Positions 10,946 to 29,532 of a stretch of 64,000 nt of DNA are shown piece after piece (position 1 is the stretch's first letter; each line of letters begins with the position of its first letter). The position numbers were made by a program, and so were the translations under genes. The notes beneath the pieces were generated by a model that was not told where the DNA came from, did no database searches, and saw only the letters and a program-made list of their open reading frames with translations. The stretch is from an uncultured Acidimicrobiaceae bacterium (lineage in GTDB: Bacteria; Actinomycetota; Acidimicrobiia; Acidimicrobiales; Bog-793), in the NCBI GenBank assembly GCA_963727645.1, contig CAVSHA010000011.1:64233-128232 (forward strand), given 5' to 3'.

Positions 10946-11206
10946 GTGACCCATCCCTTCCATCCATGGTCAGGCCTGGAGTTCGTGTTCATCAGCCTGC
11001 GTCGCACCTGGGGGGAGGATCGGGTGTTCTTCTTCACCGGTGGCGGCAGGCAGACGTCCCTGCCCACGGCATGGACCGATGCCGCTCAGCCAGATGTCTT
11101 CGTGGCGCTGGCGGATGGACGCTGTCCGTTCCGCATTGAGGATCTGCTCATCCTGGTGGACCTCGTGGATGGGCTTCACGCCGACCTCAGCAGCGGCGGA
11201 GTGTAA
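10946..11206 (+). CDS. LSR-element accessory protein A (86 aa), homologous to the N-terminal region of ORF 26522..26959 in LSR-E2
   Basis: Shared motifs by eye: HPFxxxxGxEF/L, SLPxAWTD, and DLLxxxxxVDxL. Confidence 0.55.
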   Translation: MTHPFHPWSGLEFVFISLRRTWGEDRVFFFTGGGRQTSLPTAWTDAAQPDVFVALADGRCPFRIEDLLILVDLVDGLHADLSSGGV

Positions 11207-11313
11207 GGAGGATTTCGCCGACTGTGACAGGACGATTATGCCGTCGACTACTGAACTGGTCCTTGTCGGTGTGAGGAATACCCATGAAATAAGCCTAAGT
11301 AACGCCTAGATGC

Positions 11314-11341
11314 TTGACACGACTTAGATTGTCGGCATAAT
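11314..11341 (+). promoter_or_regulatory. candidate sigma-70-type promoter for the LSR-E1 operon (TTGACA-N16-CATAAT)
   Basis: TTGACA at 11314-11319 and CATAAT at 11336-11341, in the only AT-rich stretch of the element, 34 bp upstream of the RBS and ATG at 11375. The -10 overlaps one arm of the inverted repeat ATTATGCCG (11235-11243 / 11333-11341). Confidence 0.45.
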
Positions 11342-11374
11342 GATACTTACATTCATGTGATTCGGGAGGTCGCC

Positions 11375-11851
11375 ATGGCGAAAGGCAGGGAGGATCCGAA
11401 GGTGGGGGCACTGCGTGCCGAGCGAAGCTTGAACCCCCACCCGGAATCGGTCACCGACGGCCGCTTTGCGGCCTCGGACTTCTTCGACGCCAGAGATCTG
11501 GTCCAGGTCAAGTACGAGATGGTTCGCCGGGTCCGAGTCGAGGGCGACGCCGTGAGTCGCACTGCCTCCGCCTTCGGCCTGTCCCGCCCCACGTTCTACG
11601 AGGCGGCCGCTGCGCTCGATGCCGGCGGGCTGCCCGGGCTCGTTCCCGCCCGCCCCGGGCCTCGTCGTGCACACAAGCTCACCGACGAGGTGGTCGCCTT
11701 CGTGCGCGATCACCTCGAAGCCGATCCATCGGCACGGCCAGCCGATCTCGTCGAGGTCATCGCCGATCGCTTCGGGGTGAGGGTCCATCCCCGCTCGATC
11801 GAGCGGGCGCTCGCCCGGGCCCCCCACCCCAAAAGTGGAGGCTCCAAGTGA
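11375..11851 (+). CDS. helix-turn-helix DNA-binding protein (transposase-OrfA-like wHTH) of LSR-E1
   Basis: GGGAGG lies 5 nt upstream of the ATG at 11375. HTH segment SRTASAFGLSRPTFYEAAAAL, and a second wHTH-like segment LVEVIADRFGVRVHPRSIERAL. Confidence 0.65.
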   Translation: MAKGREDPKVGALRAERSLNPHPESVTDGRFAASDFFDARDLVQVKYEMVRRVRVEGDAVSRTASAFGLSRPTFYEAAAALDAGGLPGLVPARPGPRRAHKLTDEVVAFVRDHLEADPSARPADLVEVIADRFGVRVHPRSIERALARAPHPKSGGSK

Positions 11852-12107
11852 GCCGCTCGACGACCAAAGCGTGGAGCGCTACGAGATGCTGCGAGGCCAT
11901 GCGCTCGACGGAGCGGAGTCGGGCTGGCGTCTCGGGCTCGCGCTGCTCCAGCGATCCGGCATGGCAGCTTGGGCGAGAGCGTCACGAAGCATCGACACCC
12001 GAGCACCCCTCCGACCGACTCGGGCAGCTGCCCAGCCCGATGCCGACGGCGAGGCGATCGTCGCCGTGCTCACCGCCATGGCTCTGGCCTGCGTGGGAGA
12101 TCGGTGA
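11835..12107 (+). CDS. LSR-element accessory protein (90 aa)
   Basis: Its start overlaps the HTH gene stop and it ends 3 nt before the LSR start. The C-terminal EAIVAVLTAMALA resembles ERLAVVSTLARLM in the LSR-E2 ORF 26503..26715. Confidence 0.45.
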   Translation: MEAPSEPLDDQSVERYEMLRGHALDGAESGWRLGLALLQRSGMAAWARASRSIDTRAPLRPTRAAAQPDADGEAIVAVLTAMALACVGDR

Positions 12108-12110
12108 GTC

Positions 12111-14189: not shown

Positions 14190-14201
14190 AGCCAAGCCCT
14201 T

Positions 14202-17454: not shown

Positions 17455-17477
17455 AGTGCCCGGAGCGGGACTTGAAC
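17455..17477. repeat. distal att site of the island (copy of the tRNA-Leu 3' end)
   Basis: Identical 23-mer to 29448-29470. There is no tRNA body next to it. Confidence 0.85.
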
Positions 17478-17594
17478 TCCGACCAAGCCCATCCTGGCTT
17501 ATCCCTCCAAATGACGTTGTGGCTGCTCAGTGGTTGTTTCCGGCAGCTGTCATACCGCTTTGGGAGGGTCCGTCCCGGTCGATCCCGGCGCGTT

Positions 17595-17613
17595 TGTGAT
17601 CATTTTGTGATCA
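17595..17613. repeat. two TGTGATCA motifs (candidate integrase arm-type sites) at the distal island end
   Basis: TGTGATCAttttGTGATCA at 17595-17613. The same octamer occurs 3 times at 29342-29378. Confidence 0.5.
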
Positions 17614-17663
17614 CGAAGCCCCGCTCTGGCGATCCTGGGGGACCAGAACGCCGAGCCACGATC

Positions 17664-17693
17664 TCGTATATACGACGCCTACATCGTATATAC
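17664..17693. promoter_or_regulatory. candidate VapB operator: TCGTATATAC x2 spaced 20 bp start-to-start
   Basis: Two identical 10-mers, each containing the palindrome GTATATAC, lie immediately upstream of the vapB GTG at 17701. Confidence 0.5.
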
Positions 17694-17700
17694 TGAAAGA

Positions 17701-17895
17701 GTGGCAAAGCACCTAGTCGATCTGGATGAAGAGGCACTCAGCGCAGCACAGGCGGAACTGGGGACGACAACGATCAAAGACACCGTCAACAAGGCTCTCG
17801 AGCGATCTACCTCTAGTCGGCATCGCCGAGTGGCCTCAGCCCTTGACATCCTGGCCGAGGCTGACCTCGAGGACCGAGCCGAAGCGTGGCGCTGA
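17701..17895 (+). CDS. vapB: type II antitoxin (VapB-like)
   Basis: 64 aa. The sequence MAKHLVDLDEEALSAAQAELGTTTIKDTVNKAL is typical of actinobacterial VapB. It overlaps the downstream PIN gene by 10 nt. Confidence 0.8.
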   Translation: MAKHLVDLDEEALSAAQAELGTTTIKDTVNKALERSTSSRHRRVASALDILAEADLEDRAEAWR

Positions 17896-18299
17896 GCTTC
17901 TTGGTCGATACCAGTGTCCTGAAACGCCTCGGCCGCTACGAGGTCCGACGGGTGGTCGAGTCGCTTGCAGATCGAGGAGAGCTAGCAAGGGCGACCATCT
18001 GCGATCTTGAAGTCGGCTACTCCGCTCGCAACGCCGTGGAGTGGGACGAACTGCAACTGGCGCTGGACGCCTTCGCTCCGGTTCCAACCACGGCAGCTCA
18101 TGTCGGCCGGGCGCTCCAGGTCCAGCGACTCTTGGCCGAGCGCAGCCAACGAGGCCGCAAGATCCCAGACCTGCTCGTCGCGGCCGCGGCCGAGGAACTG
18201 TCCATCTCTGTTCTCCACTACGACGCCGACTTCAATCTCATCTCCGAAGTCACCGGCCAACCCAGCCAATGGGTAGTACCCGCGGGCACGATCGACTGA
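17886..18299 (+). CDS. vapC: PIN-domain ribonuclease toxin (VapC-like)
   Basis: 137 aa. An N-terminal FLVDTSVL supplies the first acidic residue. IPDLLVAAAAEE and VLHYDADFNLI match PIN motifs. Confidence 0.85.
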   Translation: MALSFLVDTSVLKRLGRYEVRRVVESLADRGELARATICDLEVGYSARNAVEWDELQLALDAFAPVPTTAAHVGRALQVQRLLAERSQRGRKIPDLLVAAAAEELSISVLHYDADFNLISEVTGQPSQWVVPAGTID

Positions 18300-18951
18300 C
18301 GCCAGAACATTCGATCACCGGGAGGCCAACCACGAGGACATCGGGCCATCAATCTTTGGCACCTTGAGGGCTTAGTGTGGTCGGCGAGCTCCTAGCGGAC
18401 GGTTCGTCTACGCCTGGCGTGTCGATGGCTCGAAAGAGAAGCTCGCTGCTCTCTCTTATGACCCAGGAAGATTCGTCGAAGTGGGTGATGAAACCGGGCG
18501 TGCCAGCCGGCTCGTCAAGAAGGGCTCCGGCGACGAAATCCGATCGACCAACCCCGCCCTCCTTGCATCGAGTCGAGCGGGGCGCGTGGCTCGCCAACTC
18601 TACGATGGCGTGCTTGCGATTCAAGGACCGCTCGGAAATCTTTCGAGACTTCAGACGCAGAGGCACCCAGAGGTGAGCGCTTCGGACGCTCTGGAGACCA
18701 CCGCCTACTGGTCACCGGACGGCGAAATGGGACGCACCGCCTCCGGGACTTGAGGATTTTCGTCGTCGAGCTGCGAGAACCGTCTGATCTGGGCCGCCGC
18801 TGAATTCGGGACCGCGAAGTCTCGGATGCGGCAGATCGATCGATCGGAACGCGATGCAGCACGTTTCGCCGGCGGCGATCGTCTCCGTCGCCGTCCCAGC
18901 CGGCCTCGAGGGATGCTCCGAAGGTTTAAACGAGGTGCGAGACTGCCAGGG

Positions 18952-19563
18952 ATGGCCGTTGACATTCCCGTAGTCACCGTGCCGGACGTTGCGGCGTGGG
19001 GACGCTGGCTCGAGGAGCATGAGGGGCAGCGCGACGGTATCTGGCTGACGTTGGCCAGGAAGGGAACGACTGAACCCACCTCCTTGACCTACGACGATGC
19101 ACTGGCCGAGGCGCTGTGCCGCGGATGGATCGACGGGCAGCTCGGCGCCGGTGACGACGGAACCTATCGCCGGAAGTTCACACCTCGAAGGCCGGGGAGC
19201 GCCTGGTCGAAGCGCAATGTTGCCATCGCCACCAAGCTCGTCGAGGAAGGTCGCATGCGACCGTCCGGGCTCGCAGCAGTGTCGAGAGCCAAGGCCGATG
19301 GCACGTGGCACACTGCTTACGAGGGTCAGGCGACGATCGAGATTCCCGCTGATCTGGCCGCGGCGCTTGCTGCCGATGCTGTGGCGAGCGCCATGTTCGA
19401 CAAGCTGAACGCGTCCAACCGGTATGCGATCCTCTACCGGGTGACGACGGCGAAGCAGGCTGACACACGACGCCGCCGCATTGAGCAATTCGTTGCGATG
19501 CTCGCCCGTGGCGAGGCCATCTACCCGCAACAGGAGTTCACGCCCCGCCGCAAACCTGACTAG
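18952..19563 (+). CDS. YdeI/OmpD-associated family protein
   Basis: ATG at 18952. The motifs WRWLEEH, GIWLTLARKG, YDDALAEALCRGWIDGQ, RKFTPRRPGSAWSKRN and NRYAILYRVTTAKQADTRRRRIEQFVAML are typical of this family. Confidence 0.75.
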   Translation: MAVDIPVVTVPDVAAWGRWLEEHEGQRDGIWLTLARKGTTEPTSLTYDDALAEALCRGWIDGQLGAGDDGTYRRKFTPRRPGSAWSKRNVAIATKLVEEGRMRPSGLAAVSRAKADGTWHTAYEGQATIEIPADLAAALAADAVASAMFDKLNASNRYAILYRVTTAKQADTRRRRIEQFVAMLARGEAIYPQQEFTPRRKPD

Positions 19564-20035
19564 GAGTGGCCTTTGCGGAACGGGCTCAGAACGCCCTGCT
19601 GCTTCGCCACCATCGACCCGCTGTCCCTCGCCGTCCCGAGTCCCGTCACGATGCTCGTGCGTCACGCTTACTCGTGCCGATGGAGTCGGCACAGATCAGC
19701 AACCCGCTGCTCGCCCGCTTTCCAGCGCCCGCCGCGCCAGAGTCGGCGATCGGAGCGGCCAGGACGAACAAGAACCGTCGTTATGGGGCGGGTCAGCGAG
19801 TCCTGGACCATGTCATTCGGGCGCGCGTTCTGTCTCGCGGGAGTCACCTACCGGCGCTTGCGGGGCACCCGTACCCGAGAGGTATCCGGCAATCTCGGTT
19901 GGGCCTGATCAGGGTCCAACCCGCTCGCGACGGGTAAGCCCCGACGCTCAGCGACCGAGTGAACGGCAACGAGGCGGCATTCCAGGACCGGGGATTTTGC
20001 CTCACGGACGTGTCTGCCGGTGGGATCATCGCGGT

Positions 20036-20899
20036 ATGGATGACTACGTGTCGGTCAACCGGGCTAACTGGAACAGTCGGGTTCCGCACCATGTGGAGGC
20101 GTACAGGCTCGATCTGTTCCACTCTGATCCGGGTCACTTGTCTCAGGTCGTCCGCTTCGATCTCCCTCGGCTCGGAGACATCCACGGCCTTGACGTGGTG
20201 CATCTTCAGTGCCACATCGGCACCGACACGCTGTCTTTGGCCCGACTCGGTGCCCGCAGCGTCACGGGGCTCGACTTCTCATCGCCTGCGCTGGAAGCCG
20301 CCGCTCGCCTAGCCCGTGAGTGCGGGGCCACAATCGATTACGTCGAGAGCGAGCTGTACGGAGCTGTCGACGCCCTCGGTGCCGGCCGGTTCGATCTGGT
20401 CTACACGGGGGTTGGAGCGCTGTGCTGGCTGCCGGACATCAGAGGCTGGGCACAGGTCGTGGCGGCACTTCTTCGACCGGGGGGCCGCCTGTTCATCCGC
20501 GAGGGTCACCCGATGTTGTGGACGTTGAGCGACCCACGACCCGACGGACTACTCGTGATTGAGTATCCGTACTTCGAGACCGAAGGCGTTCACTTCTCGG
20601 AACCACACAGCTACGTTGACCACGACGAGCCGCTGGAGTCGCCGGACATCGTCCACTTCAACCACGGCCTCGCCCAAGTGATCAACGCAGTTATGGACGC
20701 AGGGATGTCGTTGACGGCGATCGAGGAGCATGACACCGCCCCATGGAACCCGCTCGCTGATGCAATGGAAGATGTTGGAATGGGCGAGCATCGGCTGCGC
20801 CACGCCCCCGCCCGTCTGCCAGCCACCTATACGCTCCAGGCGATCAAGGCCAGCAGTGATGGCCTGCAACGAGACCGTGAGGGCCAGATCGAGATCTGA
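20036..20899 (+). CDS. class I SAM-dependent methyltransferase
   Basis: ATG at 20036 (MDDYVSVNRANWNSR). Motif I VVHLQCHIGTDTLSLARLGA, post-I GLDFS, and FDLVYTGVGALCWL. The tracked upstream extension (19481-) is low-complexity and unlikely to be coding. Confidence 0.8.
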   Translation: MDDYVSVNRANWNSRVPHHVEAYRLDLFHSDPGHLSQVVRFDLPRLGDIHGLDVVHLQCHIGTDTLSLARLGARSVTGLDFSSPALEAAARLARECGATIDYVESELYGAVDALGAGRFDLVYTGVGALCWLPDIRGWAQVVAALLRPGGRLFIREGHPMLWTLSDPRPDGLLVIEYPYFETEGVHFSEPHSYVDHDEPLESPDIVHFNHGLAQVINAVMDAGMSLTAIEEHDTAPWNPLADAMEDVGMGEHRLRHAPARLPATYTLQAIKASSDGLQRDREGQIEI

Positions 20900-21098
20900 T
20901 CACGAGCGGGTGCCTCTCTATGAAGAGGGGCCGGTTGTCAAGATCGATTGTTGTTCTTAGCGGACACCTCCTTCGTTGCGGTGCCCGGGCTGACTAGGCC
21001 GGGCGGTGGGAGGTTGGTTCTCATCTCTCTATCGCCTCCTCGAGGGAGGAAAAGGTCTGGTGGGAGAACTCCGGCTGGTCCATCTCAAACGAGGGTCG

Positions 21099-22142
21099 TC
21101 AAGTGACCAGAGGCGCGGCGGGGGACCTTGCCGGAGCGAACATCGAGCCCGTCTGGAGCATGTGCCAGATGGCCTCGGTGAGCTTGCGGGCCACTTCGAT
21201 ACGCGCGATCTTGGCGCCGCGTTGGCGACCGAGGCGGGCCTTGGTCCTGTCGTAGTGGTCCTTGTAGATGGGATGACTCGACGCGTGCACAGCAGCCTCG
21301 ATGAGTGACCAGCGCAGGTACTTCGGCCCGTTCTTCGTGATCGGACCGCGGAAGTCCTTGCCGCCGGACTGGTAGACGCGCGGGCAAAGCCCGGTGTAGC
21401 CCATCAACTTCTTCGGAGACGAGAAGCGGGAGATGTCTCCGATCTCCGAGGCGATCGTGAACCCGAGGACCCAGGCGATGCCAGGAGCGGACTGCAGCAG
21501 GCTCACGTAGGGATGGTCCGCTCCGAGTGATTGCAGCTCTTTCTCGCACGCGTCAATCTCAGAGTCAAGGTCGTCGATCATCAAGAGCGCCGTGGCGATG
21601 TTCTTCGTCCAGGGATCGGGGAGCTCGAGACGTCCGAGCAGCTCGCGGCCAGACTTTCCGAACAGGTCCGAGACCGGGCAGGGCTTGCCGAAAGCGAGCA
21701 GGCTCGAATGGATACGGTTCTTCAACATCACCCGGTGGCGCACAAGATGGAGGTGGAAGCGGGCCCGCTCCCGTTCGGCGCGGATCTCCGGGTCCGGGAG
21801 CCATATCGCCGGCACGAGATCACGCCGGGAGAGCTCAGCTAGGACCCAGGCGTCGATCTTGTCGGTCTTGCAGGCAAGCGGTGCGAGACCCTTCACCTTC
21901 TGCGCGTCGGCGATCTCGACGTCCCATCCCATGAGCTCGAGACTGTCGTGGACAAAGCGGGCACCGTTCATCGATTCGATGGCCGCGTTCACCGGTCCGC
22001 CGAGGACCGCCACCTCCTTGGCGAGGTGACGGAGCCCGTCGAGATCGGGAGGAGCTTGGGTGACGGCGAGCTTTGTGCCAGCCTCGTTGAGCACGCAGAC
22101 GTCGAGTCGCTTTCTGCTGAGGTCAAGTCCAAGATGCAACAT
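21099..22142 (-). CDS. IS110-family transposase (IS110-A, apparently intact)
   Basis: DEDD N-domain (LGLDLSRKRLDVCV, AIESMNGARF, KTDKIDAWVLAEL). C-terminal Transposase_20 motifs (LQSAPGIAWVLGFTIASEIGDISRF, GLCPRVYQSGG, ITKNGPKYLRW). The start is taken at MLHLGLD; the tracked start is 22184. Confidence 0.88.
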   Translation of the reverse strand: MLHLGLDLSRKRLDVCVLNEAGTKLAVTQAPPDLDGLRHLAKEVAVLGGPVNAAIESMNGARFVHDSLELMGWDVEIADAQKVKGLAPLACKTDKIDAWVLAELSRRDLVPAIWLPDPEIRAERERARFHLHLVRHRVMLKNRIHSSLLAFGKPCPVSDLFGKSGRELLGRLELPDPWTKNIATALLMIDDLDSEIDACEKELQSLGADHPYVSLLQSAPGIAWVLGFTIASEIGDISRFSSPKKLMGYTGLCPRVYQSGGKDFRGPITKNGPKYLRWSLIEAAVHASSHPIYKDHYDRTKARLGRQRGAKIARIEVARKLTEAIWHMLQTGSMFAPARSPAAPLVT

Positions 22143-22600
22143 GGTGTGGGGGCCTCCTTGGTGTTGGTTCCGACGAGAACCCAATGTTCACGCCGGGGAG
22201 GTCCCTCTTCATGGCATTCAAACGTCTCCGTCGGCGGCGCACAGCGGCTCCAAACACGAGGATCAAGGCCACCCCTAAGAGGTTCGGGTGCCGATCGCAA
22301 AGTGCTGTTACCGGGCGAGTTCTTGGGTGTCCCATATCGCCAGCTAGGTCGCGCACATATCGGTGCCCGCGAATTGGTTTAGCACCAGCGCCGAGTTGAT
22401 GTCATGAAGAAGCGCTGCGCCGCTTCTGCGTGACCGGGCTCCTCGTGCGAGCACGGGCGCCGAGGGAAGCGAGGGCAGCCGTGGCCGCTCGATCCGTGTC
22501 CTCTCCGGCGAACCACCGGAGTCCCTCTCGTGGCCAGGAACCGAATGTGCAAGGCACACTCGGGGTCTCCAAACCAACCCGGAAACGGAAGGGGACTCCG

Positions 22601-22786
22601 GTGGAACACCAAAGACAGTATGTGGGAATAGACCTGCACCGTCGGCGCTCGGTGATCGTGCGGATCACCGAGGACGGTGAGGTGCTCGAGACCGTGCGCG
22701 TCGTCAACGACCCGCTCAAGCTCGCTCTCGCCATGGCGGAAGCCGGTGATGATCCCGAGGTGGCACTTGAGGCTACGTATGGCTGG
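22601..22786 (+). pseudogene. IS110-family transposase B, exon 1 (ends ...EATYGW), interrupted by a group II intron
   Basis: GTG at 22601 follows GGAAGGGG. YVGIDLHRRRSVIVRITEDGEVLE and EAT are DEDD motifs. The frame breaks at the GTGCG that begins the intron. Confidence 0.8.
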
Positions 22787-23386
22787 GTGCGCCACGAGGC
22801 GCCACATGACCGGGTGGGGGGAAGAGCCCCACCTGTGGCCTGTCGCAGCAGGCCGCTGAAGCTGGAGGCAGCCTGACCTCGGAGACGAGAGGAAGGGCGG
22901 GAGCAGCCTCTACAACGCCGGGACGAACTGGCACTACCAGACAGCTCGGGCTCGGCCAGCAAGACGGAGAGGTGTACGTATGCAGGAACCAGTGGTGGAA
23001 CCCCCTCAAGAAGTCAGGACCGGCTGGGAATCTGGTGGATGGCCGGGATGGCAGTGCGCTGCGACTCCCTACAACCGGGAGGGACAGCCTCGACGCCGAG
23101 GGTGCGTCGGGGGCCACGGTGACGTGCTGCGGGATAGCCGTGGACAGGCCTGCAGGGGAAAAGCTGGGCACCGATCCCGTCAACCGGTCTGTGGTGAACG
23201 TGGGAACCGTCCTCTCGGCGCCAACCTGCCGGCCAACCGGGTCGGCAGCGGCAAGGCACGTCGTCTGCTGATGCCGAGAGGGCGGGGCGGAGGGTCCGTA
23301 GTAGTCCGAGGTCGGGAAAGCCGGCCACATGGCGAAGGGACCCAGCGAGCTTGCAGTAGTTGGACTGGAAGATCAGGAGGACGCTG

Positions 23387-23928
23387 GTGAACACCGACGC
23401 TCCGTGGCCCGATCTCTATGAGGCCGAGCAACGGGTACTGAAGATCCAGACGAAGCTGCACCAATGGGCTGCCGACGACCCTCGTCGTCGGTTCGATGAC
23501 CTGTTCAACCTTGTCTCCGATCCTGCGTTCCTCATCGTGGCGTGGGATCGGGTGCGGAGAAATCGAGGGGCACGGTCCAAAGGAGTCGATGGAGTCGCAC
23601 CAAGCTCCATCGTCCTTGGCAGAGAGGCGTTTCTCTCCGGGCTACGAGATGATCTCAAGGCCCGGCGGTTCGTCCCTTTGCCGGTGCGGGAGAAGCTCAT
23701 CCCGAAGAAATCGGGGAAGCTTCGCGGGCTCGGCATCCCAACCGCTCGGGATCGCTGCGTCCAGGCCAGCATGAAGCTGGTCCTCGAGCCGATTTTCGAA
23801 GCGGACTTCAAGCCGTGCAGTTACGGCTTCCGACCGAGGAGACGGGCGCAGGACGCCATCGAGGAGATCTTCTTCTACACGACCCATGGTTACCACTGGG
23901 TTTTGGAGGGAGACATCAAATCATGCTT
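23387..23928 (+). pseudogene. group II intron reverse transcriptase/maturase (IEP), N-terminal part (RT0-RT3, ends ...LEGDIKSC)
   Basis: AGGAGG lies 6 nt before the GTG at 23387. The motifs KGVDGVAPSSI, PVREKLIPKKSGKLRGLGIPTARDRCVQASMKLVLEPIFE, SYGFRPRRRAQDAI and VLEGDIKSC are present. After 23928 the tracked 1055-aa ORF is antisense LSR sequence. Confidence 0.88.
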
Positions 23929-23935
23929 GGAGGCC

Positions 23936-26170
23936 TCAACACACTGCGCCTTCCACTTGTTGCTGCTCGTCGAAGAGACTGGGTTGCGGTCGTTCCACCT
24001 TGATTCTCAAGCCCTTTCTCCTTCCAGCACGCACGTGGACGGCCTCGAGCTCTCCGCGCTTTACACGCTGCAACACCGTCTGGCGGCTGACGCCGAGCGC
24101 CCGGGTGGCTTCGAGCATGGCCAACCAGCCGGGTGGTGCCTCCTCGACGAAGCGGGAGCGGAGGTCGTCTGTGACGCGGATGCGCCACGGTGCCCCGGGG
24201 GTGAGCTGCTCACCGGCGATGAAGCCGTCCCCAAGCCAGCGGTGCACCGTGGATGGCACGACGCCGAGGATCTTTGCCGCCTCGGCGATCGTCACGAGCT
24301 CGCCCTTCTTCTCGTCGAGGGACGAGTCGTGGCGGGCGATCTTCCACGAGGTGCGCAGGCTGGAGACGCGACCGCGGGTGAAGCGCTCGCCTGTTGCGGT
24401 GCGCCGTCCCTGGCGGTTCAAGATGCCCACGATCGTCGCGTCGTCGTAGTGGACAGCGAGCCTGCGCATGAGATCGACCGTGTCCTCGTCAGTGCGGATC
24501 GGTGGGGAGTAGGCACGGGGGAGATCGACGACAAGCTCGGTGGTGGCACCGCCCCGCCACCTGAGCACGAGCACGGCTCGGTGCTCCTCGCGTTCCACCT
24601 CGACGACGACCTCTTCGACCAGAGTCCGCAACAGCTCCTTGCGGTCCTTGTCGGTGGTGCTCGGAGCGGACCACACCCGGCCCACATCGAGCGAGAGGCG
24701 CGAGATGGCTGCTATTTCCTCTGGCCCGAGCACCTTTGGGCGAGCGGCCTCACGCCGGACGAGCTCGGCTTCGGCGTCACGAAGAGCAAGGAGCGCCCGC
24801 TCCCACTCGGCCTCGAGCCCTCGAGCAACGAGGCGGTTGTCCGGGTCGACGGCGAGATAGCGCCGTTCGGCTCTGCTCGCCTGGAAACGGTGCCGTTCGA
24901 CCTCTTTGCGCCATTGCGCCAAGGCGGCGTCGCGGTCGTCCTCGAGCGCTTGTGCCGCAACGAGCGAGGCCTCGATGCCCGCCGGGGCGATAGCCGAGAG
25001 GAACGCTGTCTGAATGGCTTGGTCGATCTGGACCCCGCCGACCGACAGGTGCGTCACGCCCCGCCCCGAGACGAGCTCCCGGCCGGCGCAGTGATAGCCA
25101 GGGCTCGAGTTCGAGCCCTGGTAGTGCACGGCGAGACGCCGCCCGCAGTGCCCGCAGGAAGCGATCCCCTGCAAGAGCGCGGAGCCCTCCCGGAGCGCAC
25201 CGCCCGGCTCATGGGCCTTCGGGCGGATGTTGGCACCGATGCGGACCTGGTTGGCTTCGAAGGTTGCCCAGTCGATGTAGCCGGGGTGATGATCCACGAT
25301 CAGGACCGCCCACCCGTCGCGTCCGACGCGACGCTTTTGGACGCGGGCAGCACCCGCTTTGTCAACGACACGCTCGTGTCGCGTGCGCCCATAGACATAG
25401 GCGCCAGCGTAGGAAGGATGCGTGAGCACGCGGTGGATCGCGTTGTAGGTGGGTGCAACCCACCTGAGCTCGGGCCAGGTGTTCCCCGCCGTTTGCTGCA
25501 ACGGGAACGAGAGCCCCTCGCCGAGCAGCCACAGCCACACCGCCCGCACGGAGCCGGACTCTGCGAATTGGCTGAATACGGCCGCTATCACGCCACGCAC
25601 CGCCTCGTCGGGGTGGAGGAGCACCTCACCCTCCCCCTCCCCCCATACGAGCCCGACCGGAAGGCCCCGGCGGAGCTCACCTCGTGCCGCCTTGTTGCGG
25701 ATCCCGCCCTCGAGCCGGGCACGGAGCACATGCAGCTCGGCCTCGCTCATCGTGCCCTTCAAGCCCAACACGAGCCGGTCGTTGAAGCTCGCCGGGTCAT
25801 AGAGCCCGTCCGCGTCGCCGATGAGCGTGTCGGTCAGCCCGCAGAGATCGAGGAGCCGATACCAGTCGGCGTTGTTGCGCGCGAGACGGCTGACCTCGAG
25901 GCCGAGCACGATGCCGACGTGGCCGAGCGCGACCTCGGCGGTGAGGTGGGAAAAGCCACCCCGGGTGACGGACCCCGATCCGGAGAGCCCGAGGTCTTCG
26001 TCGATCACGACGACCGAAGAGGCGGGCCAGCCGAGCTCGACCGCCCGGCCCTTCAGCGCGTACTGGCGATCGGTGGACTCGGTGTTGTGCTCGAGCTGGC
26101 TCTTTGTCGACTGGCGGACATAGACCAGTGCCTGGCGCCGGAGATGGGACTGGCCGGGCCGTTCACTCAT
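23936..26170 (-). CDS. large serine recombinase (LSR2, 744 aa from the ATG at 26170)
   Basis: ALVYVRQSTKSQ (Ser nucleophile), LEVSRLARNNADWYRLLD, zinc ribbon CGHCGRRLAVHY...GYHC, a coiled-coil, and two C-terminal MerR/excisionase-like HTHs (LVTIAEAAKILGVVPSTVHRWL; MLEATRALGVSRQTVLQRV). Clearly homologous to LSR1. Confidence 0.92.
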   Translation of the reverse strand: MSERPGQSHLRRQALVYVRQSTKSQLEHNTESTDRQYALKGRAVELGWPASSVVVIDEDLGLSGSGSVTRGGFSHLTAEVALGHVGIVLGLEVSRLARNNADWYRLLDLCGLTDTLIGDADGLYDPASFNDRLVLGLKGTMSEAELHVLRARLEGGIRNKAARGELRRGLPVGLVWGEGEGEVLLHPDEAVRGVIAAVFSQFAESGSVRAVWLWLLGEGLSFPLQQTAGNTWPELRWVAPTYNAIHRVLTHPSYAGAYVYGRTRHERVVDKAGAARVQKRRVGRDGWAVLIVDHHPGYIDWATFEANQVRIGANIRPKAHEPGGALREGSALLQGIASCGHCGRRLAVHYQGSNSSPGYHCAGRELVSGRGVTHLSVGGVQIDQAIQTAFLSAIAPAGIEASLVAAQALEDDRDAALAQWRKEVERHRFQASRAERRYLAVDPDNRLVARGLEAEWERALLALRDAEAELVRREAARPKVLGPEEIAAISRLSLDVGRVWSAPSTTDKDRKELLRTLVEEVVVEVEREEHRAVLVLRWRGGATTELVVDLPRAYSPPIRTDEDTVDLMRRLAVHYDDATIVGILNRQGRRTATGERFTRGRVSSLRTSWKIARHDSSLDEKKGELVTIAEAAKILGVVPSTVHRWLGDGFIAGEQLTPGAPWRIRVTDDLRSRFVEEAPPGWLAMLEATRALGVSRQTVLQRVKRGELEAVHVRAGRRKGLRIKVERPQPSLFDEQQQVEGAVC

Positions 26171-26525
26171 CGCCGGACCGCTCTTTCGAAGATAGGGAAC
26201 GCTTCGCGCCACCTTCGTGCTGGAGCGGTGTGTCCTCTCCCACCCTGGCACGGCGGCGCCGATAGGCGGCCTGGCGACAGCCCGGCGAACAAAAGCGAGG
26301 CTTCGAGCCCGTCCGGGACCGAAGGAGCACGCCGTCGAGATCGGTGCGCACGAAGCGGCCACAGGGCGGGCAGACAAAGCCGACCGGTGACACCTCGGTG
26401 GCAGACGAAGAAGCGTCACGCAATGTGTCCTCATCCACCGAGCGACTCACTGGAGTTCTGCGTGACGCGTGCGGTGCCCCAGCAAGAGCGGGGCTCGTTC
26501 CCTCACTCCGTCGTGGCTCGGTCAT
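26163..26525 (-). CDS. small zinc-ribbon protein (CPPC...FCSPGCRQAAYRRRR) of LSR-E2
   Basis: 120-aa ORF with four Cys in CxxC/CxxxC spacing and a basic tail. Its stop overlaps the LSR2 ATG by 8 nt. The N-terminal half is low-complexity, so the true start may be internal. Confidence 0.5.
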   Translation of the reverse strand: MTEPRRSEGTSPALAGAPHASRRTPVSRSVDEDTLRDASSSATEVSPVGFVCPPCGRFVRTDLDGVLLRSRTGSKPRFCSPGCRQAAYRRRRARVGEDTPLQHEGGAKRSLSSKERSGDE

Positions 26526-26715
26526 GACGTCCCTCCTTCTTCTCGATCGACTTCGCCATCAGGCGTGCGAGCGTGCTCACGACGGCGAGGCGCTCGGTGG
26601 GTGCCAGCTCCTCCCAGAGAGGACCGACCGTCACCTCGTCCTCGAACAGCTCCAGGCTCAACTGCACGGGCAACCTCCTCGTCTGGTCTGTGCCGATCCT
26701 GGCGAGGGTTGTCAT
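26503..26715 (-). CDS. LSR-element accessory protein (about 70 aa from an internal Met of ORF 26503..26817)
   Basis: The C-terminal LWEELAPTERLAVVSTLARLMAKSI resembles the tail of the LSR-E1 orf90. The start choice is uncertain. Confidence 0.35.
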   Translation of the reverse strand: MTTLARIGTDQTRRLPVQLSLELFEDEVTVGPLWEELAPTERLAVVSTLARLMAKSIEKKEGRHDRATTE

Positions 26716-26959
26716 CGAGGTGGTGGACCAGGCGATCCACGACAGCACGGGCGTGCAGAAGGTCCGACAGCGTTCCCAAGGTGCCCGATTCACCTTGGCG
26801 CTCGGGGATCTGTTCAAGGTCGGTCCACGCAGCTGGGATCAGGCTCTTCGAACCATCCGGCAGGACGAGGCACAGCTCGAGGCTGTTGTGCCGGTGCATC
26901 GCGCTCAATACAGAGAGCTCCTGGCCCTCGAAGGGATGGTGGGGTCGCACGATGCGCAC
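26522..26959 (-). CDS. LSR-element accessory protein A homologue; only the first ~85 aa look genuine
   Basis: MRIVRPHHPFEGQELSVLS...DGSKSLIPAAWTD...LSDLLHARAVVDRL aligns with LSR-E1 orf86. The remaining ~60 aa are R/G/P-rich and overlap the next ORF. Confidence 0.5.
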   Translation of the reverse strand: MRIVRPHHPFEGQELSVLSAMHRHNSLELCLVLPDGSKSLIPAAWTDLEQIPERQGESGTLGTLSDLLHARAVVDRLVHHLDDNPRQDRHRPDEEVARAVEPGAVRGRGDGRSSLGGAGTHRAPRRREHARTPDGEVDREEGGTS

Positions 26960-27003
26960 CTTTTCCGGAAGGTCCCGGACGTGGGCAGTGTGTCGCCTAC
27001 TCC

Positions 27004-27894
27004 TTCGACGAAATCTCCCACGTCGGCCTCATGGACCGATTGCGGAGAAGAGTTGGAGACAAGCGCGTCCTGGGACTGGTGAAGGCGTTCCTCAAAGCTG
27101 GTGTCCTCGGTAAGGACCAGGTGATGAGGGACACCGTTACCGGCACTCCGCAGGGTGGCATCCTCTCACCGCTCCTGGCGAATATCGCCCTGTCGGTGCT
27201 CGATGAGCACTTCATGGACGAATGGGAGTCCTGGGGCGGCACCTACGAACGCAGGCGAAGGCGTGTCAAGGGCCTGGCGAATTACCGAATCATCAGGTAT
27301 GCGGACGACTTTCTCGTCCTGGTCCACGGCACCGAAGAGCATGCCCAAGCACTGCGGTCAGAGGTTGCAACGGTGCTTTTGCCGATGGGCTTACGCCTGT
27401 CGGAGGAAAAGACACTGGTCACCCACGTCGACGAGGGCTTCGACTTTCTCGGCTTCCACATCCAGCGGAAGCGCCAAGAAGGAACGAATCGGCGCACGAT
27501 GTACACCTACCCGTCGAAGAACGCTCTCGCGGCGATCAAGGCGAAGGTGCGTGCGCTCACGCAGGGCAACACGAACCAGACCCTGGCCAACCTGCTGCAG
27601 CGGCTGAATCCGGTGCTGCGGGGCTGGACCAATTACTTCCGGCACGGCGTGTCGGCGAGGACCTTCAGCTACCTGAACGCCTTCTCTTGGCGGCGGGTGG
27701 TCAACTGGCTTCGCCATAAGCACCCTCGTGCCTCTTGGAGTTGGCTCCGTCGCCATCATCTCCCGAAGTGGCGGCCGACGGACGGCGAGGTGACCCTTTT
27801 CAACCCGGCGACGGTGTCGATCACGAGGTATCGCTACCGGGGGACAAGGATCGCAACGCCTTGGGCAGGGCCGAACGAGAGGGACGCCGCATAG
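27004..27894 (+). pseudogene. group II intron IEP, C-terminal part (FDEISH..., RT4-7 with YADD, and the X/maturase domain)
   Basis: FDEISHVGLMDRLRRRVGDKRVLGLVKAFLKAGV, TPQGGILSPLLANIAL, RYADDFLVL, GFDFLGFH and LNPVLRGWTNYFRH are present. The tracked ORF 26344..27894 upstream of 27004 is antisense LSR-E2 sequence. Confidence 0.9.
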
Positions 27895-27916
27895 CCCGGC
27901 GGCATGAGCTCGTGGA

Positions 27917-27950
27917 GAGCCGGATGCGGGGGAACTCGCACGTCCGGTTT
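27917..27950 (+). ncRNA. group II intron domain V
   Basis: GAGCCGGATGCGGGGGAACTCGCACGTCCGGTTT closely matches the 34-nt DV consensus. It has the AGC triad, a 2-nt bulge context and a GGAA (GNRA) tetraloop. Confidence 0.85.
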
Positions 27951-28014
27951 GGGAGTGCGGGCCGGGGAGACGGACCATCGAGAGGTGGATACCGCGCTCC
28001 GGCCCGACACTCAC

Positions 28015-28260
28015 TACTGGGCGGCCGATCTGTTGCAAGCCGAGGGCGCACACGTACACCTCGTCCATCCCCTCGGTCTGCACTGGGACTCAAGACGTGT
28101 GAAGAACGACCTGCTCGATGCCTCCGAGCTCGCGAAACGACTCTCCCGGGGTGATCTCCCAGAAGCCTGGATCGCTCCACCGGAACTTCGAGAGCTGCGA
28201 GAGCTCGTCAGATACCGTGCCAAGCTCGTCGCCCTGCGCATCTCGGCCAAGGCCCAGGTG
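28015..28260 (+). pseudogene. IS110-family transposase B, exon 2 (YWAADLL...RAKLVALRISAKAQV), truncated and fused in frame to the integrase remnant
   Basis: VKNDLLDASELAKRLSRGDLPEAWIAPPELRELRELVRYRAKLV is the conserved IS110 N-domain end. The C-terminal Transposase_20 half is absent. Confidence 0.8.
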
Positions 28261-29346
28261 CTGCGCCGCGGGTTTGCCACCAAGAAGAAGGCACAGGAGG
28301 AACTCGATATCGTGCGGGGCCAGGGCCGCACGAACAGTTACGTCGCTCCAGCGAGACTGACCGTCAGGGAGTACCTCGAGCAGTGGGTAGCCGGCCTACC
28401 CGTGACGGGACTGCGCCCGTCAACGATCGACGGTTACAGGCGGAACATGGACTACGTGATCCCCGTCTTGGGCGGCCTCCGTCTCGAAAGCATCACCTCA
28501 CTCGACCTGGACCGGCTCTATTCCCAACTGCTCGTCTCGGGACGCCGGCAGAGACCCGGACCGCTCTCGAAACGGACCGTTTTCTACATCCATTCCGTTC
28601 TGCACCGGGCTCTTTCGGACGCAGTCAAGACGGGCATCCTCTCCCGGAACGTGGCAGATAACGCCTCCGCCCCGTCCGCGAAGTCCACGCGGCCGCCGGA
28701 GGCTTCCTGGTGGACCCCTGCCGAACTCCGCACGTTCCTTTCCGCCACAGCGGACGAGCCGCTCGGCCCGCTGTTTCGTGTGGCAGCGATGACAGGCATG
28801 CGGAGGGGCGAAGTTTGTGGGCTGCGCTGGTCCGACGTCGACCTTGATGGCGCGCGTGTCGAAGTCCGTCAACAGCTCAACGTGGTTCGCTCACCCGGTG
28901 CACCTGACGGCGGCCTCGTCTTCTCTGCACGTACCAAGACCGACCACGGGCGACGGTCCATCGACATCGATCGGGCGACGGTCGCCGCTTTGCGGACCCA
29001 GAGGAAGCGCCAAGCCGAGCAACGGCTGCTCGTCGGCGCGGGCTGGACGAACGATCACGACCTTGTCTTCACCGACCCCGCCGGTCACCCGCTTGATCCG
29101 GAGTCGGTCGCGAAGGTGTTCGACCGCCGGGTCCACCGGCTCGGTCTGAAGCGGCTCAGGTTCCATGACCTTCGCCATACGCATGTCGCTCATCTGATCG
29201 CGGCCAAGCAGCAGCCGCTGAAGATAGCGAAGCGGCTTGGTCACGCTTCCGCGGCCTTCACGCAAGACTGCTACGGCCACCTCTTCGAGGATGCCGACTC
29301 GGAGGCTGCCGCCGCGGTTGCCGCAATGGTCGACGAGGCGTTGTGA
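28261..29346 (+). pseudogene. int: phage-type tyrosine integrase, missing its N-terminal few dozen residues
   Basis: It begins within the arm-binding/SAM-like region (RRGFATKKKAQEELD...LTVREYLEQWV). The catalytic motifs are AAMTGMRRGEVCGLRW, RFHDLRHTHV and LGHASAAFTQDCYGH. It abuts tRNA-Leu. Confidence 0.85.
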
Positions 29347-29378
29347 TCAGGCGAGGCGCTGTGATCAAAATGTGATCA
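29342..29378. repeat. three TGTGATCA motifs (candidate arm-type sites) at the integrase-proximal island end
   Basis: The octamers lie at 29342-29349 (overlapping the int stop codon), 29360-29367 and 29371-29378. Confidence 0.5.
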
Positions 29379-29447
29379 TTGGGCGGTTTTTGGCCTCTCG
29401 CAACGGCTTACGCAAGCCTGTCACGTGCGACTTTGTGTCGGCGTCGG

Positions 29448-29470
29448 AGTGCCCGGAGCGGGACTTGAAC
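29448..29470. repeat. tRNA-proximal att site of the island
   Basis: Identical 23-mer to 17455-17477. It covers the last 21 nt of tRNA-Leu plus 2 nt downstream. Confidence 0.85.
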
Positions 29471-29532
29471 CCGCACGTCCTTTCGAACAACGGCTTTTGA
29501 GGCCGCCGCGTCTGCCATTCCGCCATCCGGGC
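29450..29532 (-). tRNA. tRNA-Leu (anticodon CAA)
   Basis: The minus strand reads GCCCGGA TG GCGGAATGGCAGACGC GGCGGCCTCAAAAGCCGTT GTTCGAAAGGACGT GCGGGTTCAAGTCCCGC TCCGGGC A. It has a 7-bp acceptor stem, anticodon loop CT-CAA-AA, the long variable arm typical of Leu, and the T-loop GGTTCAAGTCC. Confidence 0.88.

Follow-up and report, generated by a model that had tools for sequence, protein, structure and literature searches.

The window, a stretch of 64,000 nucleotides from an uncultured Acidimicrobiaceae bacterium, contains an island of 11,993 bp at a tRNA-Leu(CAA) gene, in which two IS110-family elements, a group II intron and a large-serine-recombinase (LSR) element were identified. Secondary mobile DNA now accounts for about 60% of the island length. 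A sister LSR element lies outside the island. The features are as follows.

10893..14201, plus: LSR-E1, 3,309-bp sister element outside the island (tblastn)
17455..17477, no strand: distal att repeat marking the left edge of the island; repeats 29448-29470 exactly, in direct orientation
17886..18299, plus: VapC/PIN toxin gene at the left end of the island, common to the L007 sister island
18952..19563, plus: YdeI/OmdA-family protein, island cargo (Pfam OmdA; gene call in L083)
20036..20899, plus: SAM-dependent methyltransferase, island cargo (Pfam Methyltransf_12/25/11; gene call in L083)
20912..22224, minus: IS110-A, intact 1,313-bp IS110-family element (transposase 21099-22142/22184)
22396..22786, plus: IS110-B left end and exon 1 (non-coding 22396-22621; exon 1 from GTG at 22622 to 22786, 55 codons)
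22787..28014, plus: group II intron (total length 5,228 bp, of which 2,151 bp remain once the LSR insert is subtracted)
23929..27005, minus: LSR-E2, 3,077-bp large-serine-recombinase element inserted in the IEP gene
26170-23936, minus: LSR-E2 gene for a 744-aa large serine recombinase
26525-26163, minus: LSR-E2 Zn-ribbon-like ORF
26673-26503, minus: LSR-E2 small ORF
~26959-26813, minus: LSR-E2 DUF5372 ORF
28015..28261, plus: IS110-B exon 2 remnant of 82 codons that breaks off within the DEDD domain
28254..28261, plus: deletion junction, 8-nt microhomology CCAGGTGC, present in both the intact IS110-B and the intact integrase gene
28262..29346, plus: island tyrosine-integrase remnant (Pfam Phage_int_SAM_3 and Phage_integrase)
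29449..29532, minus: tRNA-Leu(CAA), integration target of the island (ARAGORN and Rfam)

The island and its nested layers

The window contains exactly two copies of the 23-mer AGTGCCCGGAGCGGGACTTGAAC, a distal one (17455-17477) and a proximal one (29448-29470, the proximal att repeat), and the distal copy corresponds to the last 22 nt of the tRNA-Leu(CAA) gene plus 1 nt. Shuffled sequences yielded zero matches to it, even when 3 mismatches were allowed. In two related Acidimicrobiaceae (L001 and L005) the tRNA site is empty: instead of synteny being conserved across 17455, the left flank CGCTGACCAGGGAGAAGCT directly abuts the tRNA. Sister islands in L007 and L015 begin at the identical base, each with its own tRNA-derived repeat, and window positions 17456-18773 are 95% identical to L007 2978-4322. 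The island integrase has an intact N-terminus, MSRNSTAAPRKDPKTGTWFFVVDVGADSDGNRRQV, in L003, L004 and L007, and an ECF-transporter gene adjoins the conserved tRNA-Leu(CAA) in 18 of the 20 related loci scanned. Pfam PIN matches the L007 homologue of the toxin gene, while the NCBIfam VapC match is weak and below cut-off.

The segment 15886-17454, carrying SnoaL-like, cupin and TetR genes, is likewise missing from L001 and L005, and no recognisable att site was found as its boundary. The tRNA flank therefore has an older history as well.

IS110-A carries the Pfam domains DEDD_Tnp_IS110 and Transposase_20 (NCBIfam transpos_IS110, 225 bits against a cut-off of 140), and a second copy, 99.9% identical over exactly 1,313 bp, was found on another contig of the same assembly (L082). 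The distance to IS110-B is 171 bp and the two are separate insertions; IS110-A is probably a recent one, which would have been a step of its own elsewhere in the island.

The left end of IS110-B (TTGATGTCATGAAG..) was set by three differing upstream contexts, those of the window, L080 and L081. Its exon 1 ends at 22786 (..EATYGW) and exon 2 begins at 28015 (YWAADLL..); the joined exons (137 aa) match Pfam DEDD_Tnp_IS110, homologues read EATYGWYWAADLL unbroken across the junction, and in the intron-less alleles L080 and L081 position 22786 is joined exactly to 28015. The intron begins with GTGCG at 22787 and has an Rfam Intron_gpII match (RF00029; domains V-VI) at 27915-28014 (50.4 bits, gathering score 40), whereas its 5' part gave no match to the Rfam D1-D4 models. 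LSR-free copies of the intron, about 92% identical, occupy the same IS110-B site in L084-L089. The intron-encoded protein (IEP) is encoded in two pieces, an N part (23387-23926) and a C part (27004-27894). Joined, they give a group II RT/maturase of 476 aa that reaches 368 bits against the TIGR04416 cut-off of 300 and has no endonuclease domain in Pfam. The joined protein is 95% identical to intact P0121, which is continuous across GDIKSC|FDEISH.

LSR-E2, which separates these pieces, has a core TT at both junctions (23927-28 and 27004-05) and the Pfam domains Resolvase, Recombinase, Zn_ribbon_recom, HTH_17 and DUF5372; no DUF4368 match was obtained in Pfam. Uninterrupted introns read across the site, aligning with the window to 23931 and resuming at 27003. 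LSR-E2 copies 98.5%, 95.2% and 91.3% identical are found in other introns, and the DNA similarity ends at the element ends.

Downstream of the intron, IS110-B continues in frame into the tyrosine-integrase remnant (28254-29346). Intact IS110-B copies (L086, L088) run on as ..AKAQVHAVMAKLG.. past window position 28261, and a search of the whole window for the C-terminal piece found none. The integrase remnant retains the catalytic domain and is missing about 33-35 N-terminal residues, with tblastn matches starting at residue 34. The deletion junction was placed by a three-way comparison of the window with L088/L086 for IS110-B and with L007 for the integrase, and the same CCAGGTGC fusion, without the intron, is present in L080, a 2.3-kb public contig.

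The original prediction, which had read from the letters an island of 12 kb between exact tRNA-Leu(CAA) repeats, an IS110-family gene fused to the integrase remnant and split in frame at EATYGW|YWAADLL, and an IEP split in turn by LSR-E2, is borne out by these comparisons, and its coordinates proved correct to the base. The exon junctions agree with intact homologues. IS110-A and LSR-E2 had been regarded as intact; given the near-identical second copy of the former and the copies of the latter elsewhere, both elements look active.

Order of events

The locus is very probably a genuine nest of four mobile-DNA layers in the chromosome of an Acidimicrobiaceae bacterium, with the event order given below and a member of an RT-targeting LSR family as its innermost component. 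The first event was the integration, at the 3' end of tRNA-Leu(CAA), of an island of about 12 kb with a tyrosine integrase, which duplicated 23 bp. IS110-B, the 3' end of which is now deleted, presumably inserted next, at a point upstream of the integrase gene and oriented like it. One deletion between two copies of CCAGGTGC then eliminated the first 33-35 codons of the integrase gene together with the 3' half of IS110-B and the DNA that lay between them, so that the two frames were fused and the island was stranded. The group II intron, the usual home of which is exactly this IS110-family site, presumably entered the truncated IS110-B, and LSR-E2 integrated last, into the RT gene of the intron. 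We infer excision, integration and splicing at the locus from sequence comparisons.

An ordered history of invasions had been proposed, and all four layers and their order are backed by other sequences, among which both empty tRNA sites (L001, L005) and intermediate nesting states (L007, L080, L084-L089) were found. The accompanying idea that each outer layer was disabled by an inner one applies to the IEP, but it fails for the integrase and IS110-B: a single deletion at CCAGGTGC, and not inner insertions, cost the integrase its N-terminus and IS110-B its C-terminal half. The loss of the integrase N-terminus means that the island is immobilised, and the presence of the intron is not by itself disabling for its host gene. 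The nesting is no accident of accumulation, as three of the four layers represent site-specific homing (island into tRNA, intron into IS110 gene, LSR-E2 into RT motif).

The intron most likely arrived after the deletion, since L080 carries the same fusion without it, and this placement draws on one 2.3-kb contig in which the intron might have been lost by gene conversion. It could be supposed that the intron was in IS110-B before the deletion and that L080 lost it later, by gene conversion with an IS110-B copy lacking the intron as donor or by recombination with spliced cDNA; the full-length IS110-B copies L086 and L088 already hold the intron, so that IS110-B could have come intron-bearing, and L080 is a single short contig. 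This sequence of events is unlikely, as it requires an extra and precise loss, while the truncated IS110-B retains the whole surroundings of the insertion site, making a later gain by homing or gene conversion simpler, and the 8-nt junction is identical in L080 and the window.

The LSR-E2 family and its target in RT genes

In 82 of the 83 loci first analysed (80 metagenome loci, 2 plasmids and the window), relatives of LSR-E2 are inserted, in antisense orientation, at one and the same codon, that of the RT motif D-I-x-x-x-F|F-D; the sole locus without RT evidence has flanks of 161-260 nt. With motif patterns tuned on the first examples, the junction motif was detected on the left in 70 loci, on the right in 64 and on both sides in 55, many loci on short metagenome contigs showing one junction only. 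The pattern also holds in four further isolate plasmids, with both junctions visible in three and the left one only in the fourth. The RT fragments are always on the strand opposite the LSR, and the host introns are very different from one another. In sequence logos TT reaches 2.0 bits in both attB and attP; attP is strongly conserved, whereas in attB conservation is confined to the first two positions of the codons.

The LSR would pair a near-palindromic attP (GGGCAGTGTGT..TCC-TT-GGA..ACACACTGCCC) with an attB that consists of the codons for the RT motif D-I/L-x-x-x-F|F-D, and strand exchange would occur at the TT within the codon for the conserved Phe, a crossover dinucleotide deduced from sequence. 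Because the TT core is non-palindromic, the element always ends up antisense to the RT gene. The junctions are directly visible, and the serine-recombinase chemistry would be that of the family. The placement of LSR-E2 in an RT gene is not due to chance, and members of its family use this RT site across many phyla and in many introns unrelated to one another.

The LSR and the RT gene might instead have long been passed on together by vertical descent, or form a switch under host control comparable to the excision elements skin/sigK and fdxN/XisF, as co-inheritance would also lead to the near-universal association in the clade, LSR identity is weakly correlated with host RT identity (r = 0.40), and the best NCBIfam match is XisF. 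This possibility is very improbable: the XisF match reaches 49 bits against a cut-off of 375, and elements 91-98% identical at the DNA level sit in introns with IEPs about 30-56% identical, those at 95-98% being in introns whose IEPs share 30-38% identity near the insertion site. For many more LSR pairs with an identity of 90% or above, the host RTs are only 28-50% identical (at least 10 further such pairs in RTs of at most 50% identity), similarity does not extend beyond the element ends, and close relatives of the host intron exist uninterrupted.

It is hardly credible that the nest is wholly or partly an assembly artefact, formed by misjoined repeats in a metagenome-assembled genome. The inner layers are indeed all multi-copy repeats, where assemblers fail, and the related contigs are mostly short, breaking off within these elements. 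Nevertheless, the public contig L083 (ENA ERZ25039466 contig_12594), which may or may not be the source assembly of the window, matches positions 17099-26142 at 99.96%, a span that takes in the att repeat, IS110-A, the boundary between exon 1 and the intron, and the junction at the left end of the LSR element. Each junction restores a reading frame to the base, with matching empty sites elsewhere, and the LSR-in-RT arrangement is also found in finished plasmids of cultured strains. A coincidental 23-bp repeat at 17455, with no island, is a negligible possibility even though 17.5-29.5 kb does not stand out clearly from its surroundings in base composition, being refuted by the same left flank at the empty sites and by the L007 and L015 sister islands, and the shuffles gave no second copy.

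Targeting of mobile-element genes is also seen in the sister clades. LSR-E1 has the gene order DUF5372, HTH, small ORF, LSR, with an LSR 44% identical to that of LSR-E2, and lies antisense within orfB of an IS3-family element (~10624-15335, minus strand); its removal in silico restores ..SRPRQCWD|NAVAESWF... The IS3 element and its LSR-E1 insert are absent from L001 and L005. The sister clades, including LSR-E1, occupy conserved motifs of IS3-type and IS21 genes, most sites being Asp-Asn or Asp-Lys codons just upstream of the presumed catalytic-Glu motif and one being the IstB Walker A motif.

Relation to known systems

The outermost layer resembles other tRNA-targeting tyrosine-integrase islands in the duplicated tRNA 3' end, the integrase gene adjoining the tRNA, the toxin-antitoxin gene at the far end and the decay through IS insertion and deletion; nothing essential sets it apart, apart from its immobilisation and its load of secondary mobile DNA. 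Bacterial group II introns reportedly home into IS elements, according to surveys by Dai and Zimmerly, and RmInt1 in ISRm2011-2 is one such intron. The present intron shares with them an endonuclease-less RT/maturase, one fixed transposase-gene site and many copies, and differs in its host, an IS110-family gene in Acidimicrobiia, and in its 5' part, which escapes the Rfam D1-D4 models.

Phage and ICE/IME LSRs integrating at one conserved coding site have been surveyed (PMC10083194), and the main text of that survey does not name reverse transcriptase or group II introns as LSR targets. LSR-E2 and its relatives are similar to them in the Resolvase, Recombinase and Zn-ribbon domains, the near-palindromic attP, the 2-bp non-palindromic core, the attB in conserved coding sequence and the sharing of a target gene family by distant LSRs. 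In contrast, the elements described here are only 2.7-3.4 kb long, carry a DUF5372 partner gene and no phage, conjugation or cargo genes, and target enzyme genes of other mobile elements. Tn4451/Tn5397 (TnpX, TndX) and the DUF4368 'multi-targeting' clade are likewise small elements with the LSR as sole mobility enzyme and many sites, but their targets are short and degenerate and they typically carry DUF4368, whereas LSR-E2 lacks a DUF4368 match and is invariably placed, in one orientation, at a single site defined by a motif.

The DUF5372 homologue P0350 carries the NCBI name 'Y4bD/Y4pK family protein', and by this name the protein family is shared with the y4bA-y4bD / y4pH-y4pK ORFs of plasmid pNGR234a, which we take to be the same four-gene repeat as the LSR-E1 type. 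In the literature searched, no paper was found that treats these ORFs as a mobile element or gives their target, and no published description of the LSR-E2 family was found. Mobile elements that target other mobile elements include IS4321/IS5075, which enter Tn21-family inverted repeats, Tn7-like elements entering plasmids, and integron-targeting IS1111 members. They too land in sequences that another mobile element keeps conserved, but here a serine recombinase does the work, and it lands in the codons for a conserved enzyme motif of the victim, which is thereby inactivated.

The LSR-E2 family comprises widespread, compact DUF5372-plus-LSR elements with a specificity for enzyme genes of other mobile DNA. 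An advantage of targeting other mobile elements is put forward as an argument rather than a result: such target sites would be multi-copy, dispensable to the cell, conserved by the function of the victim and carried between cells.

Layers of the tRNA-Leu island

The four-layer nest of mobile DNA predicted at the tRNA-Leu gene proved to be real, with coordinates correct to the base, and each of its four layers belongs to a known kind of element. The features of the nest and of its neighbourhood are listed below.

Features of the window
10624-15335: IS3-family element together with the large-serine-recombinase (LSR) element LSR-E1
10893-14201: LSR-E1, 3,309 bp, antisense in IS3-family orfB
17455-17477: left copy of the 23-mer AGTGCCCGGAGCGGGACTTGAAC
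20912-22224: IS110-A, intact IS110-family element, 1,313 bp
22396: left end of IS110-B, the IS110-family gene split by the intron and fused to the integrase
22787-28014: group II intron, with its domain V-VI at 27915-28014
23929-27005, minus strand: LSR-E2, LSR element inside the gene of the intron-encoded reverse transcriptase/maturase (IEP)
28262-29346: tyrosine recombinase gene (island integrase)
29448-29470: right copy of the 23-mer
29449-29532, minus strand: tRNA-Leu(CAA), located by ARAGORN and Rfam

The island is flanked on both sides by an exact direct repeat that comes from the 3' end of the tRNA, and no third copy of the 23-mer was found elsewhere in the 64-kb window even at 3 mismatches; shuffled sequences gave 0 matches. 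Related genomes also favour an island over a coincidental repeat at 17455 with synteny running across it. In two related loci with an empty site (L001 and L005) the left flank of 17455 (CGCTGACCAGGGAGAAGCT) lies directly against the tRNA 3' end, and the homology of two sister islands (L007 and L015) to the window at their left ends starts exactly at 17456, each of these islands having its own tRNA-derived repeat. The L007 left end is 95% identical to the window over 1.3 kb, and a PIN/VapC gene is encoded in the left end common to the window and the sister island. The window's island carries a YdeI/OmdA protein and a methyltransferase as cargo, as well as the tyrosine recombinase (Phage_integrase and Phage_int_SAM_3 domains), whose gene adjoins one boundary. 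The tRNA adjoins an ECF-transporter gene in 18 of 20 related loci scanned, and homologues of this gene, which lies to the right of the tRNA, are 85-93% identical in metagenome-assembled genomes of Acidimicrobiaceae/Acidimicrobiales; the setting of the genome is peat or bog soil, Acidimicrobiaceae (Actinomycetota). Over 17099-26142 the window has a 99.96% match in a public contig (ENA ERZ25039466 contig_12594).

The segment 15886-17454 (SnoaL-like, cupin and TetR genes), located between a conserved 168-aa gene and the island, is also absent from L001 and L005, and no decayed tRNA-derived repeat that might mark an older tandem island was found near 15.9 kb within 6 mismatches. Since this segment is missing from both loci and has no att-like bound, the flank of tRNA-Leu(CAA) appears to be generally variable, with an older history. 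An exact-sequence look-up of the TetR protein gave no match. L001 carries a degenerate integrase remnant where the window has the SnoaL-like/cupin/TetR genes. On a blastn alignment of 68% identity to the integrase 3' end, L001 was considered as an occupied site, and this was rejected: the match is a degenerate older remnant, and the tRNA-side flank agrees with the left flank of the window's island. Short partial duplications of the tRNA end adjoin the tRNA 3' end in L005 (9830-9860) and L015 (9835-9860) (GCCCGGAGCGG.. or GGTGCCCGGAGTGGTGCCCGGAGCGGG), and may be scars of earlier integration and excision. Elsewhere in the window, ARAGORN called a tRNA-Pro(GGG) at 46193-46271 (minus strand), which is below the Rfam tRNA gathering score and falls within a 1,530-codon ORF with strong GC3 (45289-49878, minus strand); this call is probably a false positive.

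Inside the island, the left end of IS110-B (TTGATGTCATGAAG..) was placed where three copies with unrelated upstream DNA start aligning, while the right end is not present in the window. The joined exons match DEDD_Tnp_IS110 over 137 residues (positions 1-145 of 155); only the DEDD domain is retained, as the remainder of the gene is deleted. Full-length relatives run on through ..AKAQVHAVMAKLG.., whereas the window switches there to ..AKAQVLRRGFATKKK.., which is the integrase, in line with the predicted fusion to an integrase remnant; the integrase N-terminus is missing in comparison with L007 and two further loci (L003 and L004), where the same gene begins intact (MSRNSTAAPRKDPKTGTWFFVVDVGADSDGNRRQV-LRRGF..). 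At the switch point (28254-28261) a three-way DNA comparison found the octamer CCAGGTGC in the IS110-B parent as well as in the integrase parent, and one microhomology-mediated deletion therefore took the 3' half of IS110-B, the intervening DNA (in L007 this includes an HTH gene) and the initial 33-35 codons of the integrase. The lost IS110-B C-terminal part and integrase N-terminus were both looked for throughout the 64-kb window, and neither was found. The original prediction, in which every outer layer owes its loss of function to an inner event, does not hold for the two outermost layers, whose missing parts were lost together in that one deletion. The spliced fusion (window 27904-29346) would form one open frame comprising the partial DEDD domain and the integrase without its N-terminus; in L080, a contig with an intron-less IS110-B, a frameshift breaks this fusion, and hence nothing indicates that selection maintains the chimera.

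IS110-group elements encode a guide RNA in a non-coding end such as the left end of IS110-B. This end comprises 226 bp of non-coding DNA, in which a 24-nt inverted repeat (79% complementary, 66-nt loop) was observed at 22502-22615; a search of the hairpin for a guide ('bridge') RNA family gave no Rfam match at a permissive threshold. In the second intron-less contig (L081), another IS110-B copy is broken at the equivalent of window position 28221. The insert there (1072-1440, ~370 bp) ends in perfect inverted repeats (GGGCTCTCCATTTAACCGGAGTAG) and looks like a miniature inverted-repeat element. The best 120 homologues of the IS110-B N-terminal part (P0001-P0120) are 128-240 aa long with the DEDD domain only, and many of them end at frameshifts or contig ends; these short proteins probably reflect assembly fragmentation of a multi-copy element.

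The neighbouring IS110-A, delimited by a 99.9% identical second copy in the same assembly and matched by a near-identical public contig, carries both IS110-family domains, DEDD (N-terminal) and Transposase_20 (C-terminal). It is a side insertion outside the nest, 171 bp from IS110-B. A head-to-head placement against IS110-B, as a hint of targeting, was considered and rejected, because the second copy puts the end of IS110-A at 22224.

The intron begins with GTGCG, which fits the 5' GUGYG consensus, and its domain V-VI scored 50.4 bits against Rfam RF00029 (gathering score 40). For domains D1-D4 no Rfam model matched at a permissive threshold, at which a spurious miRNA match on a hairpin was the only hit, and a simple search of the intron for EBS-IBS pairing, as complementarity to the end of exon 1, gave only a self-complementary hexamer and nothing convincing. 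The predicted in-frame split of IS110-B is borne out by L080 and L081, in which the sequence of window 22396-22786 is joined directly to the sequence that starts at 28015, and which are thus exact intron-less alleles; the exon junction also matches intact homologues of the host protein, which are continuous through EATYGWYWAADLL. In six other contigs, IS110-B copies are occupied at the corresponding site by this intron (~92% identical), and two of these contigs have a host gene that is intact past 28261; this IS110 gene is therefore the regular home of the intron. L080 has the fusion with the integrase at the octamer and lacks the intron, and it appears to be an intermediate state of the nest. 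The simplest history would be that the intron entered an IS110-B copy that was already truncated. The same allele might also arise, improbably in our view, by a secondary loss of the intron in L080. Entry into a truncated copy would then be followed by the split of the IEP gene, where the prediction was also correct: introns that lack the insert can be aligned as far as window 23931 and again from 27003, and without LSR-E2 the halves rejoin into 476 aa (TIGR04416, the NCBIfam group II RT/maturase model, 368 bits vs a cut-off of 300). An intact protein that shares 95% identity with the rejoined IEP runs straight through GDIKSC-FDEISH, and homologues of the IEP carry RVT_1 and GIIM domains.

LSR-E2 and its target in reverse transcriptase genes

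The innermost element, an insert of 3,077 bp, has TT at both junctions (TGC-TT-GGAGG... ...CTCC-TT-CGAC). In 54 elements this core shows no variation at either junction, the inverted-repeat arms of attP are GGGCAGTGTGT and ACACACTGCCC, and the reconstructed attP is GGGCAGTGTGTCGCCTACTCC-TT-GGAGGCCTCAACACACTGCGCC. Four ORFs are encoded on the minus strand: a DUF5372 ORF, a short ORF, a Zn-ribbon-like ORF and a 744-aa recombinase, the stop codon of which is 7 nt from the element end. The recombinase has the defining sequence features of large serine recombinases, as Resolvase (PF00239), Recombinase (PF07508) and Zn_ribbon_recom (PF13408) were all above cut-offs and two HTH_17 matches were found at the C-terminus. 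Its YVRQST motif aligns with YCRVST of PDB entry 3g13, in the region of the serine nucleophile; the match in the PDB sequence search was to the catalytic domain only, and an exact-sequence look-up of the protein gave no match. The DUF5372 ORF is present in 76 of 80 loci, and this constant linkage to the LSR is what makes it a candidate accessory factor; its AlphaFold model (mean pLDDT 64) was too poor for fold comparison. The Zn-ribbon ORF occurs only in the window's clade.

A tblastn search with LSR-E2 against plasmids returned 531 records, and the 20 matches listed were 57-64% identical and belonged to Bradyrhizobium, Pseudomonas, Cupriavidus, Mycetohabitans, Mesorhizobium and Rhizobium. All six plasmid loci examined had the recombinase antisense inside a group II RT gene, five with both RT halves broken at the same motif and one (L183) with the left junction only. 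A metagenome scan added 80 loci with LSRs of 62-100% identity. According to tblastn with the window IEP, the N-terminal part of the RT (ending near residue 185-190) follows directly after the LSR stop, and the C-terminal part, which starts at residue 177-181, is found ~500 bp upstream of the LSR; the two parts are always on the strand opposite the LSR. Motif-based junction calling was applied to 83 loci and recovered the left junction for 70 of them, the right one for 64, and both junctions for 55, the misses being attributed to short flanks or pattern misses; L132, with a flank of 161-260 nt, was the only locus lacking any RT evidence. Elements were 2.67-2.77 kb long, or 3.07-3.11 kb in the window's clade (L092-L096, inserted in other introns).

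On one side of the junction there is always residue 5 after the Asp of ..D-I/L/V-x-x-x, and on the other the following F-D, so the TT supplies bases 1 and 2 of the conserved Phe codon. The attP is strongly conserved and nearly palindromic, whereas conservation of attB is confined to the first and second positions of codons. Three elements of the window's clade (L092, L093 and L094) are 98.5%, 95.2% and 91.3% identical in DNA to LSR-E2, while their host RTs are only ~30-56% identical to that of the window around the site, and similarity stops at or just past the element boundaries. At least 10 further pairs of LSRs that are at least 90% identical sit in RTs of at most 50% identity. These comparisons show that the insertions were independent rather than inherited.

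LSR-E2 is not an enzyme of the TndX/TnpX type. In contrast to these multi-targeting transposases, it had no DUF4368 match and shares with its relatives one motif-defined target in 82 of the 83 loci; it also scored far below the NCBIfam equivalog cut-offs for XisF (49 bits vs 375) and CcrA (25 bits vs 700).

Sister elements and the family reading

A second nest in the window is formed by LSR-E1 and its host IS3 element, which is absent from the empty-site loci L001 and L005. LSR-E1 is 44% identical to LSR-E2 and has the gene order DUF5372, HTH, small ORF, LSR. Taking it out restores ..SRPRQCWD-NAVAESWF.. in orfB (break at C-W-D|N-A-V-A-E), and we take the Glu of NAVAESWF to be the catalytic Glu of the IS3 family. 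Plasmid relatives of the two elements (L172-L180, 40-72% identical) are all antisense in the host gene, with the break points listed below; a scan of viral contigs for LSR-E1 relatives found none.

Break points of sister elements in plasmid loci
Rhodococcus, Burkholderia, Streptomyces: IS3-type transposase genes, at D|N
Azospirillum: IS3-type gene, a few codons upstream, ..SVGSVG|
Aromatoleum, Mesorhizobium, Caballeronia: IS21 istA, at D|K-x-K-V-E or equivalent
Bradyrhizobium betae: IS21 istB, at the Walker A motif

Every resolved case was an enzyme gene of another mobile element, which suggests, from a small sample of nine plasmid loci and the window, that the whole DUF5372-LSR group targets such genes.

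The innermost layer of the nest might represent an undescribed superfamily of 2.7-3.4 kb DUF5372 and LSR elements, found only inside other mobile elements, antisense, with clade-specific enzyme-motif targets and a TT/AA core, a reading for and against which we find the balance even. Victims found to date are the group II intron RT at motif D-I-x-x-x-F|F-D, the IS3-type DDE transposase, mostly at D|N-A-x-x-E, IS21 IstA and the Walker A of IS21 IstB, across Actinomycetota and Alpha-, Beta- and Gammaproteobacteria. A compact and widespread serine-recombinase family that homes into enzyme motifs of other elements is apparently undescribed. Its sequence pattern is strong; the recombination mechanism and the biological role are what we infer from it. 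Members would inactivate the victim enzyme and leave the victim ends intact, and for this reason they may both curb introns and insertion sequences and ride on them, the latter needing a sister copy that would supply the enzyme in trans.

LSRs targeting one conserved coding site have been described in a survey (PMC10083194), the main text of which makes no mention of reverse transcriptase or group II introns. A search for literature on DUF5372, on y4bA/y4bD elements and on serine recombinases targeting intron RT or transposase genes found none, which is not proof that they are undescribed; ISfinder and TnCentral lay outside this search. The NCBI name of DUF5372, 'Y4bD/Y4pK family', links the elements to the repeated ORFs of pNGR234a.

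Biological significance

In the nest, one invasion after another has left a clean record, resolved to the base, and intermediate states survive in public data; it is a useful teaching case, and unsurprising as such. The main significance lies in a serine recombinase family that appears to use conserved enzyme motifs of other mobile elements as landing pads. Cultured carriers offer testable systems (Pseudomonas mandelii JR-1, Bradyrhizobium septentrionale, Mycetohabitans endofungorum and Rhizobium jaguaris); the copy on P. putida pWW53, which the annotation gives as two CDS, may be defective. If confirmed, the family would provide an LSR whose attB is set by protein-level constraint, the site being still recognised while third codon positions vary, with implications for site recognition by LSRs and for LSR engineering. 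It would also help to explain why recombinase genes in plasmid annotations are frequently surrounded by broken transposase and RT genes, and would add an extra layer of parasitism over introns and insertion sequences that could affect their spread.
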